Shown: in pieces, positions 21,764-60,717 of the stretch
Numbering within the stretch: the first letter of the stretch is position 1
Layout: each line of letters begins with the position of its first letter
Assembly (NCBI GenBank): GCA_029856155.1
Contig: JAHQWL010000011.1
Coordinates: 1-61,474, forward strand
DNA: 61,474 bases
Direction: 5' to 3'
Origin: Promethearchaeia archaeon
GTDB taxonomy: Archaea; Asgardarchaeota; Lokiarchaeia; Sigyniarchaeales; SOKP01
Made by a program: the position numbers and the translations under genes
Notes under the pieces: generated by a model
What the model saw: the letters and a program-made list of their open reading frames with translations, nothing else
What the model was told of the DNA's origin: nothing
Databases searched by the model: none

Positions 21764-23395
21764 TTATAAGCTCGAGATAACTCTCCTTATTTTATTTATT
21801 CTTGAAGTTATATTATCTAATTTCTCCCTAAGTTCTTCACTTCGATTTTGATATTCAGAATCGTTGATGGAACCTGCATTATAACTTTTTTCTATTTCAT
21901 TAAAATTTTTTTCTAATGAATACCGTTTACCTTCAAGAGCAATTAATTCTTGATATAAGGAATCCTTATCCTTAGGAAATTGTTCTGTACTAGTTGGCTC
22001 AGATTCATTGTAACTAGTTTTTTCTGGTTTTGATACACCAAACTCAATAAATGGTTTTGCATCAGGTTTCTTTATAAGTTCTTTTTCTTCTTTTTTCTTC
22101 TTTTTTTCATCCTTCTCTTTCTTTTGTTTTACTGGTAAGGACTCAAAAGTTTCGTTTAACTTAGGTAATTTTTCGGTTGTTTTTTCTCCTACCGATGAGA
22201 ATACATTGAATAAATCTGTACCTGTTGATCTAATTTCTTCAGTTTCAACTTCTTCTATGCTTACGGAAGTAATTTTAGGTTTTGTAGGAATTTCAGGTTG
22301 TTCAACAAGTTTAGGCTTTTTAATAGTAAAAGGTACCTCCTTTTCTTCTTCTAAGACATCTATCTCTATAATTTCAGAGATTAATGAACTCTTTTTTGGT
22401 TTTTCGGGCATATTTGAAAACGTGGGAGGTTCTGGAAGTATTTTAGATCCTTCAGACTCATTAAGGATTTTTGCTATTGATTCAGGTTTTTTTGGCAGTT
22501 CTGAAATCATTTTTGAAATTGGTTTATCTTGAGATTTATCTGATTCTTCTAAAATTCCCAGAACTGATTTTAGTTCTTTAGAGGGTTCTGAAATAATTTT
22601 TGGTTCTGATAATTTTGATAATGGTTTTAAATCTTCAGATTTAGGAATTTCTGCTTTTTCAATCTTTGGTTTTTTTTCAAAAATAGAGGGAACTTTTAAT
22701 TTTTCTAACTCTTCTTCAATTTTCATTTGTACTTGTTTCATAGATTTTATTCCGATCTTTTCTATGGGTTTTTCTGCTTCACGCTTAATAGGTGCTTTAA
22801 TGTGAGGAGCTTTTTCAGGTTTTTTAATAATAGGAATTTTAATTTTCGGGGGAGGTAACTTCACATCTTTTTTTGGTGTAATCTTTTTTATTATTTTCAT
22901 TTGAGAGACATGCTTAAGCGTCTCATCTTTCCTTTCTAATTCGAGTTTTAAACCATTAATCTCATGTTTAAGATCATCAATCTCTCCTTTAAATTGTTCA
23001 GAAACCTTACCAACAATTTCATCAATATCTATACTAGCAGTTTCTAAATCTTCATGTAAGCGCGCGGTTGGTGATTCTTTGATTTCTTCTTCAGGGTGAA
23101 ATTCAGGAGCTTCACCAGTGATATTTATTATTTTTTGTATATAATCAGGTAATTCAGATTCTACAAACCAAAGATCTAAAGTGTCCCAACTGTCTAATTT
23201 ATTCAATGAATCTTCAATAAGATTCATATTAGATTCTGTTTGGAACGAATTCACAGTTTTTAAGGTTTGTATCTTCTCAATTAGTTTCACTCGAGCAGTT
23301 ATTTCATCATCGGGAGTTGGCTCTCCTTGTATTAAGTATAAATAAATATCCTTAATCTCTTGAACAATCGATTCGAACTTTTCTTCTTCACTCAT
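21764..23395 (-). CDS. Large protein with N-terminal helical domain, coiled coil, long P/E/K-rich disordered linker and C-terminal helical hairpin
   Basis: Composition and heptad pattern; no family recognised. Confidence 0.75.
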   Translation of the reverse strand: MSEEEKFESIVQEIKDIYLYLIQGEPTPDDEITARVKLIEKIQTLKTVNSFQTESNMNLIEDSLNKLDSWDTLDLWFVESELPDYIQKIINITGEAPEFHPEEEIKESPTARLHEDLETASIDIDEIVGKVSEQFKGEIDDLKHEINGLKLELERKDETLKHVSQMKIIKKITPKKDVKLPPPKIKIPIIKKPEKAPHIKAPIKREAEKPIEKIGIKSMKQVQMKIEEELEKLKVPSIFEKKPKIEKAEIPKSEDLKPLSKLSEPKIISEPSKELKSVLGILEESDKSQDKPISKMISELPKKPESIAKILNESEGSKILPEPPTFSNMPEKPKKSSLISEIIEIDVLEEEKEVPFTIKKPKLVEQPEIPTKPKITSVSIEEVETEEIRSTGTDLFNVFSSVGEKTTEKLPKLNETFESLPVKQKKEKDEKKKKKEEKELIKKPDAKPFIEFGVSKPEKTSYNESEPTSTEQFPKDKDSLYQELIALEGKRYSLEKNFNEIEKSYNAGSINDSEYQNRSEELREKLDNITSRINKIRRVISSL

Positions 23396-25699: not shown

Positions 25700-26191
25700 T
25701 TATTGTTGTTGTTGACGTTTTTTCCTTCGCACGACACCAATAACTAATCCATGACGACCAGTACTTCTAGTTCGTTGTCCACGAACCTTTAATTTTAAGT
25801 GATGTCGAACACCTTTATAGCTTTTAATTTTCTTCATTCTGTCAATGTCTCTTTTGACGGTAATCTCTAATTTATTTCCTATGATGTGAAGATCTTCACC
25901 AGTACGTAAATCTTTTGGTCGATTTACCATCCAATTAGGAACCCCATTTTCAATAGGATTTAAGATAATTTCTTCGAGTCTATTCAAATCTTTTTCAGAA
26001 ATTGCCCCTATCCTTAAATTTGGGTCGATTCCCGCCAATTTAGTGATGACTTGAGCGAATCTTCTACCAATACCACTAATTTGTGTTAAACCATGTTCAA
26101 CTTTAGCATTTCCATCTACTTGGGATCTTAATTTACGAAAAAACACCTTTTCGCGGAAATTTTTAGGTCGAACCGCAGATATAGAACTCAT
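25700..26191 (-). CDS. rps13: 30S ribosomal protein uS13
   Basis: GIGRRFA, WMVNRPKD, SYKGVRH, VRGQRTRSTGR. Confidence 0.98.
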   Translation of the reverse strand: MSSISAVRPKNFREKVFFRKLRSQVDGNAKVEHGLTQISGIGRRFAQVITKLAGIDPNLRIGAISEKDLNRLEEIILNPIENGVPNWMVNRPKDLRTGEDLHIIGNKLEITVKRDIDRMKKIKSYKGVRHHLKLKVRGQRTRSTGRHGLVIGVVRRKKRQQQQ

Positions 26192-26322: not shown

Positions 26323-27822
26323 CTAGTAATTCGGTACTCTTACACTTTCTTCTTTTTTTGAATTAATGTGTTTATTACTTTTACTTTTTTTAGAACCCGC
26401 GATTTTTTGTAATAATGATAAACCGGGTTTCACTTCCGCTATAGGCTTCGACTCAATTAAGTCGTTTTCAATCAATTTATTATAGAGTTTTTTTCCTTTT
26501 TCAGTTCTAATAAGTACCGTATTCCATCCTGATGGAGACCCTATTGATCCAATTGAAATATCTGCGGATTCAGAGGTTAAATCGTAACAAATTTCACAAT
26601 CTTCTCGAGCTAAGTGTGAGATTTCTTTAATCGGAATGTTTAATTCTTCATCATTTTTTGTATATATAAAGAACTTTCCTTTATTGATATCCATTTTTTT
26701 TGCATTCTTAATATCCACATTCAATTTCTTACATATTTCCAAAAGTGACTCATAAGAAAATGATTCCATACAGAAGATTCCAATTTTATACTTAATAGTA
26801 TTTAAGGAGGGGATTCCAATATTGTAAAGCTCAGATTTTAAAATAGCTTGCATTTGACAAGGAACTCCTACTACCGCGATTTTTTTATTTTTTAGTTCCT
26901 TTTGATTTAGTATTTGCAAGTTAGGATTGTTTACATATTTAGTTCCAGCTGTTAATAGGATGTCTTCCTTATTTTTTAGTATTACTGGTTCAGGTCGCCA
27001 TAATGTATTACTCATTTTTGCTCCTAACGCAAAATCGATTTCATTTTTATCAAAAAGATAATGTAAACAAGTACTTGAAATTCCTCCATCTTGACATATC
27101 ATCGAAATTTCTTTTATTTTTGTTCTTGCTGAATAGGCTTCAAGAAAATGTCCAATCTTCTCATAATCTTTAATCTTGGAAGCTTTTTCTTGTGTCATAT
27201 TTAAAATTTTCATGGGTAAAAAAGTTCTTGGACAAACAAAATAACACAGTCCACAGCGAATACACTTATCTTCATCAATTTTCCCAAAACCATTATAAAT
27301 ATGAAGGCAATTCACAGGACATATTCCCGCACACAAACCACAACCAGAACAAATTTTAGAATCAAAAATCACTTTTACTGGTTCATATATAGGTTTTAAT
27401 TGTGAAATTGGATCATCATTAATTTTTATTGAATAATCTTTAAAGATGAATTTAGCAGGATTATTTTCGTCTCCTTCAATTTCATCAACTAATTCTTCAA
27501 GAAGTATTAGTTTTTCATTTTTAAGTAATTCTAGTAAACATAATGTTTTACTTAACTCAATAGAGTTAAGATCAGAAAATTTAATTAGAGTTTTTAAATT
27601 ATTTTTAGAATTATTTTTTAAATCATTAAATAGGGAATATTTTAGCTTTTCTTCATCTAACATTCTATAAAGGATAATATCATATTGAGATTCATCATAT
27701 ATTCCCGCTTTTAAAATGTCTTGCTTAGCATCTATTAGTGCTCTAATTCTATATGAATCTAAAGCATCTGCTACATTTTTTAAAAATTCCCATGAAAAAT
27801 TTTCTTCAAGATTCATAATCAT
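26323..27822 (-). CDS. Coenzyme F420 hydrogenase/dehydrogenase beta subunit (FrhB/FdhB family) with 2x[4Fe-4S] domain and ~140 aa N-terminal extension
   Basis: CSGCGLCAGICP and CIRCGLCYFVCP ferredoxin motifs; QDGG, AGTKY, VGVPCQ, GIFCMESF, ADISIGSIGSP. Confidence 0.9.
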   Translation of the reverse strand: MIMNLEENFSWEFLKNVADALDSYRIRALIDAKQDILKAGIYDESQYDIILYRMLDEEKLKYSLFNDLKNNSKNNLKTLIKFSDLNSIELSKTLCLLELLKNEKLILLEELVDEIEGDENNPAKFIFKDYSIKINDDPISQLKPIYEPVKVIFDSKICSGCGLCAGICPVNCLHIYNGFGKIDEDKCIRCGLCYFVCPRTFLPMKILNMTQEKASKIKDYEKIGHFLEAYSARTKIKEISMICQDGGISSTCLHYLFDKNEIDFALGAKMSNTLWRPEPVILKNKEDILLTAGTKYVNNPNLQILNQKELKNKKIAVVGVPCQMQAILKSELYNIGIPSLNTIKYKIGIFCMESFSYESLLEICKKLNVDIKNAKKMDINKGKFFIYTKNDEELNIPIKEISHLAREDCEICYDLTSESADISIGSIGSPSGWNTVLIRTEKGKKLYNKLIENDLIESKPIAEVKPGLSLLQKIAGSKKSKSNKHINSKKEESVRVPNY

Positions 27823-27848
27823 TTTAAATTATTATAATTCTAAATTTT

Positions 27849-27919
27849 TCCGAAAACCCGAGCAAGGGGTTAGTTGCTTTTCAACTATAATTTTCTTGAA
27901 AAGTTCATACTATTTCGGA
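27849..27919 (-). promoter_or_regulatory. Candidate SECIS-like RNA structure at the 3' end of mvhD
   Basis: mRNA can pair UCCGAAA/UUUCGGA, UAGU/ACUA, CUUUUCAA/UUGAAAAG and ACCC/GGGU; AUGAA internal loop, A-rich apical loop; lies directly after genes with in-frame UGAs. Confidence 0.55.
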
Positions 27920-28338
27920 TTGAATTTTGGAAGAGGAGGGAGTGCATTAATTTTAACGGACATATCTTCAACTGAATTTACAAATTTTTCAACTTCTGCT
28001 GCTGAACAGAAATACTGTTGAACCCGATCTTCAGAAATACCTTCATGTTTTAATAATTTCTTTAAAGTAAGTACATGTTCATATGTATTAATATTACCGT
28101 TACCAAATTCGCATTCACCTTCTTTTCAAGAAATTATTGCTACTCCATCAGCACCATTTAAGAAAGCTTCCATAATTAAATGTATTCCTATTCGTCCAGT
28201 GCATCTTACTCTAATGAGATGAAAATCTGTAGAGTATGATTTTCTTGTTGTGCCGGTTAAATCTGCTACAGAATAACCTCACTTATCACAACCAAAAGCA
28301 ACTATTCTTCTAGAAGTATTATCCTTTTTTATAGACAT
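27910..28338 (-). CDS. mvhD: MvhD/VhuD hydrogenase iron-sulfur subunit, selenoprotein with 2 Sec (UGA at 28279-28281 and 28126-28128); not in ORF track
   Basis: Manual translation MSIKKDNTSRRIVAFGCDK-U-GYSVADLTG...IRVRCTGRI...AFLNGADGVAIIS-U-KEGECEFGNGN...GISEDRV...CSAAE...*; 142 aa; both UGAs sit at MvhD Cys positions (CxxC; GCxxGxC). Confidence 0.93.
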
Positions 28339-28359
28339 TCTTTTTAACCTCTAATTTAT

Positions 28360-30357
28360 TTATTCTTCAATACTTTCAGGAATTCTTTCTACAGTTTCTA
28401 ATTCAGTGCTGCCAATACCTTTAAGTTCCTGAGCAAATTGCTTATCTCGATAATATTTCAAGTCAATAGCTCTTGCTGGGCAAGAAGATACACATACACC
28501 GCAACCTTTACATTTTAAATCATTGACTTCAGCGATTTCATTTTCATTAACTTTTATTGCTTCATAGAAACACAGTTTTTCACACCTATGACATCCCATA
28601 CATAGTTCTTCATTTACTTCAGCAATAATTAATTCTTGTTTTATTGTGTCATGAGATAAAATAGTAGCAACTTTACTTGCAGCAGCTAAAGCAGAAGATA
28701 CTGAATATGGAATATTTTTTGGTCCAGCAGCACATCCAGCGATATAAATTCCAATATCTTTCGTTTCTTGTGGGCTTAGACACCCATGAATTTCTGAAAG
28801 AAATCCTCCTGGACCTTTACTTAATCCCATTACTTCGACCATTTCTTCAGTTCCTTTGGAAGGAATCATTCCTGTAGATAATACAACTAAATCAGCGTCA
28901 ATCTTTACTATCTCACCAGTTAAAGATGAATATGCTCTGACTTTTAATTTGTTAGTTTTATTATCCTCTATTATCTCGCCTACTTTTCCTCTAATCATTC
29001 GTATCCCTGATTCTCTTACATTTCTATAATATTCTTCATTTCCCTTATCGGTTGTTCGAATATCAATATAAAATATAATCACATCCATGTCGGGATATTC
29101 TTGTTTCAGTAATTGGGCATTTTTAAGCGCCACACTACAGCAAACAAAAGAACAATATGGATTAGCATTAACATCTCTAGACCCAACACATTGAACCATT
29201 ACTACGTTTTTTGGTGTTTCTCCATTGGAAATTCGATATACATGTCCTCCTGTAGGTCCAATAGGACTTAATAATCTTTCTAATTCTATTTGTGTAATCA
29301 CATCGGGATAAAATCCATAATTATATTCGTTGGATTTCCATATTGGATACTCATCCCAGCCTGTCGCTATAATTACTGCTCCAACATTAATGTCGATAAA
29401 TTCTGTTTCTTGCTCAAAATTAATTGCTTCAGCAGGGCATATTCGCTCACAATTTTTGCAATCAATACAAACACTTCTATCCATAACAGCTAATTTCGGT
29501 ACTGCTTGGGGAAATGGAATATAGATTGCTCCTCTTTCACCAATACCTCTATCAAACTCACTAGGAACTTTAATAGGACATTTTGTTGTACATAATCCAC
29601 AACCAGTACATTTTCTCTCGTCAACATACCGAGCATTCTTTCTAATCTTAGCCTTATAATTTCCGGGGATACCACTGAATTCTATAACATCACTATAGGT
29701 AAATAAATTTATATTGGGATGTTTTGACGCATTAACCATTATTGGTGCCAGAACTCATATTCCGCAATCATCCGTTGGATATATCCTATCTAATTGTGCC
29801 ATTTTTCCCCCAATAGTTGCTTCTTTTTCAATTAAATAGACGGGAATTCCTTGATTGGCTAAATCTAAAGCAGCATTCATTCCAGCAATTCCTGCTCCAA
29901 CAATTAAAACTGCTTTTTCTACAGGAATTTCTTTTCGTGGAATGTTTTCTAATTCACGAGCACGATTAATTCCGGCTCTAACAAGTCTTATAGCTTTTTC
30001 AGTGGCCTTTTGTTTATCGTCTCTATGGACAAAAGAACAATGTTCTCTTAAATTAACCATTTGAAAATAATAAGGACTTAAACCGGCTTCAATTAAAACA
30101 GCTCTATAGGTGGGTTCATGAATTTTTGGGGTACATGCCGCAACTACTACTCTATTCAAATCCTGTTCTAAAATGTCATTTCTGATAGTATTTTGTCCTG
30201 GATCGCTACAAGTAAAAGAGTTTACCCTAGAGATCACTACATTTGGGAGATTTTCAATAGCATTTTTAACCGCATCACAGTCAACAGAAGCTTTTATATT
30301 CACTCCTCACTCACATACATAGACTCCTATTCTCATATTGGTCTGATTTTCAGACAC
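28360..30357 (-). CDS. hdrA: Heterodisulfide reductase subunit A, selenoprotein with 2 Sec (UGA at 30307-30309 and 29755-29757), 665 aa
   Basis: Two ORF-track pieces are in the same frame, joined by DDCGI-U-VLAPIMV; upstream frame reads MRIGVYVCE-U-GVNI (CxC motif); GTG start at 30357 with AGGTGA SD (alternative ATG 30336); GAGIAG FAD motif, QCVGSRD, ferredoxin motifs. Confidence 0.93.
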
Positions 30358-30568: not shown

Positions 30569-30754
30569 ATGTCAGAGGCAGAAGAAAATAAGAAAGAGAA
30601 TTTTGCAAAAGAGTTTATGATAGAAGAAGGTTTAAAAGGAAAAGCAAGACGAATAAAAATAATGAAGATTATCGATATGGTGGGTTATGACAAAATGAAG
30701 ATTAAAACCGCATTAGCACGTTCCACTATAGCAGATAGGATTCAGCATGAATAA
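30569..30754 (+). CDS. Small hypothetical protein
   Basis: 61 aa, ATG start, charged helical composition; upstream of serS. Confidence 0.6.
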   Translation: MSEAEENKKENFAKEFMIEEGLKGKARRIKIMKIIDMVGYDKMKIKTALARSTIADRIQHE

Positions 30755-32134: not shown

Positions 32135-33367
32135 ATGATAGAAAAAGATTTAGAGGATTTCGAGGAATTTTATAAAGAGAAGCTCGAATCTCAATTTTTT
32201 AAATTAAGGAAAGCAATCAAAAAATTGATTGCTGGGATTAGAGAGAATTTAATTGAAATAAAAGTATGTTTAGATCACTTTTTAGAGACAGGTAAGGAAA
32301 AGATCGATCAAAAAGCTCAAAGATCATTAAACTTTTTCTCAGACAGAATTAGAAAAGAAATTGAAGAAATAGAAGTTCCTGAAAAGGAAATAAATTATGA
32401 TAACATCATGGAATTGTTAAATTCTATTAAAAAATTATTTACAAGTATTAATGAAATCGCTAGAAAATCTTTACCGAAGTTTCATAAAGAAGTTCAAGCA
32501 GAAATTAAAGAATTAAATTATATTACTCGCAAATTAGGTAAAAAACAAGCAGTTTTAGACGAATTTTTAAGAAAGAAGTATACCGATGTAAAAAATGCTG
32601 AAAATTTCCTTAAAAAGCTACCAAAGCTCTTTCACCTTAAAGAAAATATTGAACATACGAAGTTGGATTTAGATGAGTTTGAAAAGGAATTAGAGGAACG
32701 CAATAGAAAACAAGAAGAATTAAATTCAAATTTGTTAGATTTAGAAAAAAATGAACTTTTCAAGGCTTTGGAAGGAGAAAAGGACAACCTTTTTCAATTA
32801 CAATTAGCGATTAATGATGAAATAGGTTTTAAGAAAGCATTGAAAAAGCTTAAGTTTGAATTAGAAAAAGGTACAACTCATGCACCAAATATCGATTTAA
32901 ATTATTTAAGGGATTTTATTAAAAATCCAATTAAAATGTTAGCTAATGAACGAAAAGATTTACCAAAATTCACAAGTCTTATGGTACAACTACGGCATAT
33001 TTTGGAAGAGAACAAATTGAATCTTAAAACAGATACTAAACAAAAAACTATAGAACAAATAAACGCAATTTTTGAAGAAAAGCAATTACAGGAAAATATT
33101 GAAAAATATTTACAATTAAAAGATGAAATTAAAGAAATTGAAAAAAAAATTTTAGAAGCGGGGCTCGCTCAAAAATTAGATGATTTAAAAAATGAAATTT
33201 CTTCCAATACTGTGAAGTTAGAACACATTCAAAATGATTTTGAGAGAAAAAACAAAGATTATATCAGATATCTCGCCGCTCTTAAAACCGAAAGGGAAGA
33301 ATTCCAGAATTCTATAGAAGAAATCTTAAAGGAGAAAATTAAAATAAATATTACTTTTTCGTTTTAA
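32135..33367 (+). CDS. Long coiled-coil protein
   Basis: E/K/L-rich heptads over ~400 aa; no Walker motif. Confidence 0.75.
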   Translation: MIEKDLEDFEEFYKEKLESQFFKLRKAIKKLIAGIRENLIEIKVCLDHFLETGKEKIDQKAQRSLNFFSDRIRKEIEEIEVPEKEINYDNIMELLNSIKKLFTSINEIARKSLPKFHKEVQAEIKELNYITRKLGKKQAVLDEFLRKKYTDVKNAENFLKKLPKLFHLKENIEHTKLDLDEFEKELEERNRKQEELNSNLLDLEKNELFKALEGEKDNLFQLQLAINDEIGFKKALKKLKFELEKGTTHAPNIDLNYLRDFIKNPIKMLANERKDLPKFTSLMVQLRHILEENKLNLKTDTKQKTIEQINAIFEEKQLQENIEKYLQLKDEIKEIEKKILEAGLAQKLDDLKNEISSNTVKLEHIQNDFERKNKDYIRYLAALKTEREEFQNSIEEILKEKIKINITFSF

Positions 33368-34190: not shown

Positions 34191-34748
34191 TTATTTAAAA
34201 GTATTTAAAATTTGAACTGATAAACTTTCAAATGCCTTATCAACATTGTCATTCAATTTCGCTGAAGTTTCAAAATATTTAACTCCTAATTCTCTAAGCT
34301 TGTTTTCTATTACTTCTGCACTAATTTCTCTTTTCAAGTCTAGCTTATTTCCAACCACTATATATGGTATGTCTCCACTTAATTCCTTTAATTTTGAAAT
34401 CCAAAAATCTATATGATCAAAAGAAGAGATTTTTTCTAAGCTAAAAATAACCATGGCTCCAACTGCTTGGACAAAATAATATTCATTGGCCCAAAGTTTA
34501 TCTGTTTGCCCTCCAATATCCCAAAAATAGAGCTTGAATCCCTTTTGTTTTATATCATTCTTTAATTTTAGATTTTTTAACTTTAATTTATCAATTATTT
34601 TGCCTAAATCGATTTCCTTTATTAAGAAATTTGCTCCTATAGTTTGATGGTATGATTCACTAAAGTGGCCGTCAACGTATTGAGCTAATAGACTTGTTTT
34701 GCCAACTCCCGCATCTCCGCATAAAATTACTTTTCCACGGTAAGACAT
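34191..34748 (-). CDS. Rab-like small GTPase
   Basis: G1 GDAGVGKT, G2 YHQTIG, G3 WDIGGQ, G4 NKLD, G5 ETSAK. Confidence 0.95.
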   Translation of the reverse strand: MSYRGKVILCGDAGVGKTSLLAQYVDGHFSESYHQTIGANFLIKEIDLGKIIDKLKLKNLKLKNDIKQKGFKLYFWDIGGQTDKLWANEYYFVQAVGAMVIFSLEKISSFDHIDFWISKLKELSGDIPYIVVGNKLDLKREISAEVIENKLRELGVKYFETSAKLNDNVDKAFESLSVQILNTFK

Positions 34749-60612: not shown

Positions 60613-60717
60613 CGCAGCTGGAGGGATTCGAACCCCCGAGCGCTTATGCGCACCGGCTTTCTTGATCATCATAAAAAACGCTCGAGGCCGGCGTCTTACC
60701 ATCTAGGCTACAGCTGC
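60613..60717 (-). tRNA. tRNA-Ser(CGA) with 22-nt intron at 37/38 (60659-60680)
   Basis: Acceptor GCAGCTG/CAGCTGC, discriminator G, anticodon stem CCGGC/GCCGG with loop CT-CGA-G, long variable arm (GCGCATAAGCGC), GTTCGAATC T-loop; CCA not encoded. Confidence 0.93.

Follow-up and report, generated by a model that had tools for sequence, protein, structure and literature searches.

Does the region at positions 26323-30357 of contig C11 from a Promethearchaeia archaeon encode a working electron-transfer module in which selenoproteins are wired to coenzyme F420, and if so, what would such a module do? The window, by which we mean the whole stretch of DNA analysed, is the 61,474 nucleotides (nt) of this contig, and coordinates are positions within it; features elsewhere in the genome (4.1 Mb, 30% G+C, 97% complete) carry the name of their own contig. 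When TGA is read as a sense codon, the minus strand of the region holds three co-oriented genes, namely hdrA, mvhD (also called vhuD) and a gene of the frhB family. We favour the view, at a probability of roughly 55%, that they make up a lokiarchaeial selenoprotein operon, and that FrhB would form with HdrA and MvhD, the latter two containing selenocysteine (Sec), a soluble, hydrogenase-independent, F420-linked electron module.

The first gene, hdrA (28360..30357, minus strand), encodes a type-I HdrA flavoprotein of four domains and 665 amino acids (aa); the gene starts with GTG, stops with TAA and has UGA as codons 17 and 201. It is followed after 21 nt by mvhD (27910..28338, minus strand; 142 aa), encoding a putative [2Fe-2S] connector with UGA at codons 20 and 71, a TAG stop and a GAGGT ribosome-binding site upstream. 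After a further 87 nt comes the frhB-family gene (26323..27822, minus strand; 499 aa), which has no TGA and is already whole under translation table 11. The same table breaks hdrA into open reading frames (ORFs) of 182 and 459 aa and leaves mvhD uncalled, and "hidden", the word used for the operon in a preliminary description made from the letters alone, is therefore fair. Reading through the TGA codons confirms the two concealed genes proposed there, in length, in UGA positions and in their common orientation with an FrhB/FdhB-type gene. At the GTG start of hdrA (30357), orthologues have TTG, ATG or GTG at the same site, behind a conserved AAGGTGA. The ATG at codon 8 was also considered as a start and was rejected because orthologues do not keep it.

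That the four UGAs would be read as Sec is very well supported by the combination of Sec machinery, TGA/Cys pairs among paralogues, a covarying Sec insertion sequence (SECIS), conservation of TGA, and DNA contigs from two studies. In HdrA and MvhD chains of known structure, the residue aligned with each of the four is Cys or a deposited Sec ("X"). Codon 17 of hdrA (30307..30309; this and the other three on the minus strand) stands in the context C-E-U-G within the N-terminal iron-sulfur (Fe-S) domain, where solved HdrA has Cys. Codon 201 (29755..29757), in D-C-G-I-U, is the canonical archaeal Sec site, equivalent to Cys/Sec197 of methanogens, and is the "X" of chain 9sfi_A. In mvhD, every orthologue, like the other families of the order, has TGA at codon 20 (28279..28281; C-D-K-U), and codon 71 (28126..28128; S-U-K-E-G-E-C) is TGA in the genus and Cys in more distant families. 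The motifs VYVCEU, DCGIU, GCDKU and SUKEGEC and the proposed position of each UGA at a Cys column, both from the preliminary description, are thus borne out by the solved chains and the paralogues.

The genome itself supplies many of the comparisons, since tblastn finds about 15 HdrA and 15 MvhD paralogues in it. Five HdrA paralogues have TGA at both columns, so that Sec17 and Sec201 always co-occur among the Sec forms, and Cys fills the first column in every other match that spans it. The second column holds Cys in whole copies or those lacking the N-terminal domain, and E, N, A or a gap in split copies that retain that domain. Of the MvhD paralogues, four carry TGA at both columns and 11 carry Cys. 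Beyond this genome, more than 40 orthologous loci, drawn from many independent metagenome-assembled genomes, keep both mvhD TGAs, and also the codon-17 TGA wherever the N-terminus of hdrA is covered; hdrA and mvhD of these genomes have no other stops or frameshifts. This retention of TGA is far beyond chance. The TGA positions are also covered by DNA contigs from two studies, which list no differences there and agree on TGA rather than TGY.

The Sec machinery on which the preliminary proposal depended is found in the genome. A tRNA-Sec lies at C44:153209-153297 (62 bits, above its cut-off; ARAGORN finds the same tRNA), adjoined by SepSecS (483 bits). On the same contig, 4 kb beyond SepSecS, an EFSec-like gene scores 239 bits, just under the bacterial selB cut-off of 242. 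The PSTK-like gene (156 bits) is also under its curated cut-off, and the gene for SelD has one in-frame TGA of its own.

One nucleotide past the mvhD stop begins a SECIS element of the Lokiarchaeota type (27874..27908, minus strand), made up of AUGA, a 9-bp stem, an 11-nt A-rich loop GAAAAUUAUAG, the complementary arm and AA. Mariotti et al. (2016; PMC4989117) describe the lokiSECIS as AUGA, a stem of 9 bp, a loop of 11 nt that begins with A's, and GA/AA, and an AUGA_AA variant is on record for Lokiarchaeia hdrA/frhD (PMC11227280); the element here has exactly that geometry and is of that variant. On its 3' side is a conserved CUAACC flank with a small G+C hairpin (27853..27873, minus strand), and the CUA of this flank could, we infer, pair with the UAG stop codon as a lower helix. 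Among 19 distinct orthologous sequences of the stem, 95.9% of the cells are paired and six of the nine pairs have changes on both sides. None of 500 shuffles reaches any of the five measures used, and sliding the partner by 1-3 columns lowers pairing to 41-64%. Folding of the mvhD-frhB spacer as a single sequence does not recover the SECIS (minimum free energy -15.3 kcal/mol, z -1.14), because its stem is A+U rich. Elements of the same form with other stem sequences follow the Sec tandems on C30, C98 and C21 and a lone Sec-hdrA on C22, and the motif is absent behind every Cys-mvhD gene of the genome. Since no second element is seen at the locus, hdrA and mvhD presumably share this one, which would serve four UGAs over about 2.2 kb.

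What kinds of HdrA and MvhD are these? HdrA aligns end to end with chains 9sfi_A and 5odc_A, with the N-terminal Fe-S domain, the thioredoxin reductase (TrxR)-like domain for flavin adenine dinucleotide (FAD), and the inserted and C-terminal ferredoxin domains all present; it scores 730 bits against 9sfi_A, a methanogen HdrA. Its E360 and K412 are the counterparts of E356 and K409, residues at the FAD N5 that are held to mark bifurcating enzymes. A capacity of this HdrA to bifurcate is accordingly suggested by its full length and by the keeping of both residues. MvhD scores 129 bits against Pfam FlpD and 122 bits against VhuD. The best NCBIfam model for both proteins is HdrA2 (NF040770), as in HdrA2B2C2 of Methanosarcina acetivorans, an F420H2-dependent enzyme with an HdrA-MvhD fusion, at 816 bits for HdrA and 117 bits for MvhD, each under the curated cut-off of 1100. 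The locus falls outside HdrA2, taken as a single HdrA-MvhD polypeptide above that cut-off, both by this score and by having mvhD as a separate gene; moreover, HdrA2 is reported without an FrhB partner.

Each Sec lies 1-4 residues from a Cys (C-x-U, C-x-x-U, C-x-x-U and U-x4-C). The role of the residue equivalent to Sec197 has been described in two ways. One source makes it a ligand of the N-terminal [4Fe-4S] cluster of a partner subunit, and a 2026 cryo-electron microscopy (cryo-EM) study of Methanococcus (PMC13518236) places it in a possible Cys-Sec selenylsulfide relay from FAD to cluster A3, its authors leaving the role unsettled. The adjacency of Sec and Cys may be a lead toward a relay role and is short of a result.

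The selenoprotein part of the locus is of a kind already described. Sec-HdrA, in which as many as four of five possible positions hold Sec, and VhuD with two Sec have been known in Lokiarchaeota since 2016 (PMC4989117), with hdrA and vhuD always in tandem, a very short spacer, a UAA or UAG stop after hdrA and one SECIS after vhuD; a later study (ISME J, 2024; PMC11227280) extends the arrangement to 227 Asgard genomes. The present pair agrees in having hdrA just upstream of vhuD, a 21-nt spacer, a TAA stop, several Sec in HdrA and two in VhuD, a single SECIS and several copies in the genome, and in this part we find no difference. As for the gene after the SECIS, the term "FrhB" occurs 0 times in the parts of these two papers available to us. 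A literature search gave no account of hdrA-mvhD-frhB in Lokiarchaeia, although it left many journals uncovered and is no proof of absence.

The FrhB-family protein has four parts: a helical and winged-helix extension (residues 1-145), a 2x[4Fe-4S] ferredoxin domain (about 150-205), an FAD/F420 core (223-496) and a C-terminal tail. It scores 59 bits against PF04422, 152 against PF04432 and 294 against PRK09325 (cut-off 269). Compared with solved structures, the core scores 229 bits against FrhB, 196 against the F420-reductase modules 8riu/8rja (ferredoxin domain included), which sit on carbon monoxide dehydrogenase (CODH) and Fwd of an ethane oxidiser (PMC11493965), and 158-170 against Fsr. 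Scores against ElpB/FdhB are 45-64 bits (61 for ElpB, 8rvu_E), and the non-F420 relative HCAR gives 39 bits. These scores support placing the protein in the F420-dependent clade. Residues 1-155 match no Pfam family at E up to 10. AlphaFold2, run on the orthologue alignment, predicts the extension as a helical bundle followed by a winged helix of the helix-helix-strand-strand order, with a predicted local distance difference test (pLDDT) score of 87.5. Foldseek found no match to it in the PDB at E <= 0.001 (E >= 0.05), and VIA-align gave generic winged-helix matches only (Z about 7). Because a profile of the extension, run against 1.8 billion proteins, matches only 29 cluster representatives, mostly fragments or FrhB proteins of about 500 aa, the extension is, judged by such matches, lineage-restricted. 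At the other end of the protein, residues 464-499 (26323-26430, minus strand) form a Lys-rich disordered tail ending in an invariant P-x-Y, which is kept even in 40%-identical relatives and may be a docking motif.

How close is the link of frhB to hdrA and mvhD? The order hdrA, mvhD with two Sec, SECIS and frhB is contiguous in 21 of 23 loci of the same genus, and among the GenBank loci reaching far enough upstream of frhB, nearly every one has the trio unbroken. Several genomes have insertions of 1-5 kb between frhB and the S13 gene that follows it, and none has one within the trio. In four genomes from two other families of the order the trio is kept, with FrhB 38-45% identical and with Sec20 and Cys71 in MvhD, so that the synteny sought in the preliminary description extends across three families. 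Within the genome, an FrhB-family gene directly follows three of the four Sec hdrA-mvhD tandems (C11, C30 and C21); the one on C30 is a paralogue, 40% identical and with the same N-terminal extension, and the one on C21 is a divergent FrhB_FdhB_C protein. On these grounds FrhB is a conserved, recurring associate of Sec-HdrA and MvhD, and the three most likely form an F420-coupled HdrA module.

Two of the paralogous loci deserve description of their own. The fourth Sec tandem, on C98, is followed by a 432-aa protein (C98:55148-56446) that is not of the FrhB family and has no Pfam match; it may be another kind of input module. The other locus runs across two contig ends (C30:1-8113 and C3:8-1522), the part on C3 carrying a Sec-hdrA with four TGAs. 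Its order is Sec-hdrA, Sec-mvhD, lokiSECIS, frhB, an HdrD-like gene (425 aa; Fer4 and two CCG domains), and then pieces of HdrA, one with the TrxR domain only and one with the N-terminal domain, together with a Cys-mvhD. This operon thus has a subunit of the disulfide-reductase type in cis. The pattern of split HdrA heterodimers in the genome is that described for anaerobic methanotrophic (ANME) archaea.

An F420-coupled module presupposes F420, and the gene content suggests that the organism makes it. CofH (457 bits), with a CofG-like neighbour, CofD and CofE are encoded, the scores of CofH, CofD and CofE being above their cut-offs; a single CofC-like gene lies inside the window, and F420-dependent Mtd is present. 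CofH and the FrhB orthologue go together in a set of 40 relatives: families f1 and f4 have both, and in family f2 the 11 genomes searched, three of them single contigs, yielded neither. This co-distribution amounts to only about two independent contrasts. For canonical Mer (TIGR03555), the genome has only sub-threshold luciferase-like relatives. Three such Mer-related genes are adjacent at C88:26965-30386, with 135-168 bits, under the Mer cut-off.

Partners for the high-potential side of an HdrA enzyme, and hydrogenases, are also encoded in the genome. It has about 25 CCG-domain proteins, two of which are HdrB above the curated cut-off. One HdrB, on C51, adjoins a Cys-HdrA. The other is in a cluster at C100:10797-13875, which comprises two DsrE/DsrF-like genes, a DsrH-like and a DsrE2-like gene, hdrC and a canonical hdrB (355 bits, above the cut-off), and runs up to the contig end; its content is a hint that one of the Hdr systems may act on a persulfide carrier of the sulfur-relay kind. 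Mvh-type [NiFe] hydrogenase genes adjoin another HdrA-MvhD pair on C22. In Methanothermococcus, accession numbers set hdrA beside mvhB/A/G/D and hdrB/C far off. Given that separation, the HdrB genes of the genome and the HdrD-like gene on C30, the missing hdrBC in cis does not imply a module free of HdrBC.

In the reading that we favour, hdrA and mvhD are read through four UGAs as Sec under the direction of one eukaryote-like lokiSECIS 3' of mvhD, and the three products would assemble into a soluble electron module that needs no hydrogenase. FrhB would exchange hydride with F420(H2) at its FAD, and the genome would have to supply from elsewhere a disulfide reductase of the HdrBC or HdrD type, with its substrate, as the high-potential branch. 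The direction could be either F420H2-driven bifurcation, or confurcation or ferredoxin-driven reduction of F420, feeding Mtd of the tetrahydromethanopterin (H4MPT) Wood-Ljungdahl pathway. Bifurcation, the direction of the electrons and any independence from HdrBC are points that we infer.

The electron path of this proposal has precedents. The route F420H2 to FdhB/ElpB to MvhD/ElpC to HdrA is known from cryo-EM and enzyme assay of Elp-Hdr (PMC12350162); Elp-Hdr (ElpABC-HdrABC) of Methanothermobacter marburgensis and Fdh-Hdr-Fmd of Methanospirillum hungatei are both heterodisulfide reductases that bifurcate electrons from F420H2 or formate (PMC12350162). The present locus would share their logic, with an F420 flavoprotein, an MvhD-type [2Fe-2S] protein and the bifurcating FAD of HdrA in sequence and no hydrogenase. 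Differences from Elp-Hdr are that the locus lacks HdrBC in cis, that the organism is without known metabolism of the heterodisulfide of coenzymes M and B (CoM-S-S-CoB), and that HdrA and MvhD carry Sec. Closer in gene content are the hdrA-mvhD-frhB genes of Korarchaeia, read as passing electrons from reduced ferredoxin through HdrA, MvhD and FrhB to F420 (PMC10667645), and the HdrA clusters of ANME archaea with FdhB/FrhB only, read as confurcation towards F420 (PMC9012536, PMC12054007). These share HdrA, MvhD and an FrhB-family protein outside classical methanogenesis and are themselves genomic proposals; the present locus differs in belonging to another phylum, in encoding Sec, in the SECIS between mvhD and frhB, and in the rare N-terminal domain of FrhB.

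The locus is therefore a well-supported example of system kinds that have already been described and no new kind; what is specific to the lineage is the winged-helix extension of FrhB and the missing FdhA/ElpA scaffold. The interpretation in the preliminary description stands in part. Its Sec codons, its conserved three-gene unit and an FrhB of the F420 clade hold. Its inference from the operon of a module free of HdrBC does not, in view of the roughly 25 CCG proteins, the two HdrB, the HdrD-like gene on C30 and the distance between hdrA and hdrBC in Methanothermococcus; nor does a hydrogenase-free setting, in view of the Mvh-type [NiFe] genes on C22. Its direction of electron flow, from F420H2 through FrhB and MvhD to HdrA, would be one of two options, the opposite flow having been proposed for the Korarchaeia trio (PMC10667645). 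The kind of unit that it describes has precedents in Sec-HdrA/VhuD tandems with one common SECIS (PMC4989117, PMC11227280) and in F420H2-driven Hdr, known from biochemistry (PMC12350162).

Several observations weigh against an F420-linked module at this locus. Elp-Hdr and Fdh-Hdr use an FdhA/ElpA scaffold with an FdhB-type subunit, and no ElpA/FdhA gene adjoins the trio; between serS and S13 there is no FdhA-like gene, and no genome-wide search for such genes was made. The F420 subunit here is of the FrhB/FpoF type (229 bits against FrhB, 61 against ElpB) and has a winged-helix extension, unlike ElpB/FdhB. Contig C11 has no CCG-domain (HdrBC/HdrD) gene. A single genus of conserved gene order contributes much of the synteny, which weakens the argument from linkage. 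On the complete Promethearchaeota chromosome CP070831.1 (346741-360234), the frhB orthologue (77% identical) and S13/S4 are kept and unrelated genes take the place of hdrA-mvhD. The SECIS between mvhD and frhB marks the 3' end of the message in the published model, and frhB may have a transcript of its own. Contigs from RNA libraries of relatives 90-95% alike (roughly 93%) leave the junction of mvhD and frhB unbridged. The tie of FrhB to HdrA-MvhD is in sum one of synteny.

A simpler enzyme from the same three genes is the alternative that survives best, and we consider it unlikely while giving it real weight. HdrA would oxidise reduced ferredoxin, MvhD would relay the electrons and FrhB would reduce F420, in a plain ferredoxin:F420 oxidoreductase that does not bifurcate and needs neither HdrBC nor a disulfide. 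The reaction is exergonic and would provide F420H2 for the Mtd present in the genome, the contig has no CCG-domain gene to suggest otherwise, and the same trio has been read in this way in Korarchaeia (PMC10667645). That FrhB-type modules can plug onto Fe-S enzymes to reduce F420 is seen in 8riu/8rja. However, HdrA here has the full set of domains and the E and K residues tied to bifurcation, and the paralogous operon on C30 adds an HdrD-like gene. The FrhB protein, like FpoF, has a 2x[4Fe-4S] domain of its own. FpoF alone can act as a ferredoxin:F420 oxidoreductase, and a downhill transfer would hardly seem to call for a flavoprotein of 665 aa with two Sec.

A second alternative, which we regard as improbable, makes frhB a mere neighbour. 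In this case hdrA and mvhD would form a bicistronic message ending at the SECIS and would serve an Mvh-type hydrogenase and HdrBC encoded elsewhere, and FrhB would act alone or with another partner. The published model, with the SECIS in the 3' untranslated region after vhuD, fits this, as do the Mvh-type [NiFe] and canonical HdrB genes elsewhere in the genome and the one genome that has frhB without the pair; and synteny across the genus extends over everything from cofC to S11, which makes adjacency weak evidence. On the other hand, the trio lasts in other families at about 40% identity of FrhB, and recurs in deep paralogues within the genome, an FrhB-family gene following three of four Sec tandems. 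Insertions strike the frhB-S13 spacer and never the trio, and the Mvh hydrogenase on C22 adjoins its own HdrA-MvhD of the Cys type.

Of comparably low probability is a bolder form of the F420-linked module, a minimal scaffold-free enzyme that would furcate or confurcate electrons between F420 and ferredoxin with no HdrBC at all. The winged helix of FrhB would replace FdhA/ElpA, Sec/Cys pairs would act as selenylsulfide relays, and the design would recur in the three paralogous operons. If true, this three-operon module would be a main F420/ferredoxin hub of these non-methanogenic archaea. Last, the idea that the TGAs are true stops, and hdrA and mvhD broken or fragmented genes or assembly errors, draws on the way table-11 calling splits hdrA and misses mvhD, and is effectively refuted by the fall of all four TGAs at conserved Cys/Sec columns, their retention in more than 40 genomes free of other stops or frameshifts, the covarying SECIS, the tRNA-Sec and main Sec genes of the genome (PSTK-like and EFSec-like being under curated cut-offs) and the agreement of the two-study DNA contigs. 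The same evidence rules out a pseudogene reading of the two genes.

The surroundings of the operon belong to a block that is syntenic across the genus: cofC, an ORF of 410 codons and serS, and then on the opposite strand hdrA, mvhD, frhB, S13, S4 and S11. The nearness of serS and the cofC-like gene, pointed out in the preliminary description as a clue to function, is no functional evidence, because both are single-copy genes within this block. Downstream of frhB, the same strand continues after 131 nt with the gene for ribosomal protein S13 (25700..26191, minus strand), then S4 and S11; the S13 gene lies outside the unit, because other genomes have insertions between frhB and S13. Between hdrA and serS, and divergent from hdrA, is a Lys- and Glu-rich ORF of 61 aa (30569-30754, plus strand). 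Two sizeable ORFs, at 21764-23395 (minus strand; 543 aa) and 32135-33367 (plus strand; 410 aa), have no Pfam match and are syntenic and conserved in the genus. A gene for a small GTPase of the Ras/Roc family (34191-34748, minus strand; 128 bits), typical of Asgard archaea, stands beside the cofC-like gene, 4 kb from the locus. Rfam gives a 105-nt tRNA at 60613-60717 (minus strand; 43 bits), probably an intron-containing archaeal tRNA; ARAGORN reports zero tRNAs in the window, this one included. A scan of the locus for sigma-70 promoters and intrinsic terminators, with models ill-suited to an archaeon, found no excess over shuffles.

What the locus means lies first in annotation. Important redox genes of Asgard archaea escape standard gene callers, which here split hdrA and miss mvhD, and this skews how the metabolism of the prokaryotes most closely related to eukaryotes is reconstructed. 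The principles behind the locus have already been published and the gain is hence incremental: it adds a well-documented Sec-HdrA/MvhD pair whose partner would be an F420 module instead of a hydrogenase. With one SECIS for two cistrons and four UGAs over about 2.2 kb, it is a possible test case for Sec insertion. For the biology of Lokiarchaeia, it bears on the balance of ferredoxin, F420 and the H4MPT Wood-Ljungdahl pathway.

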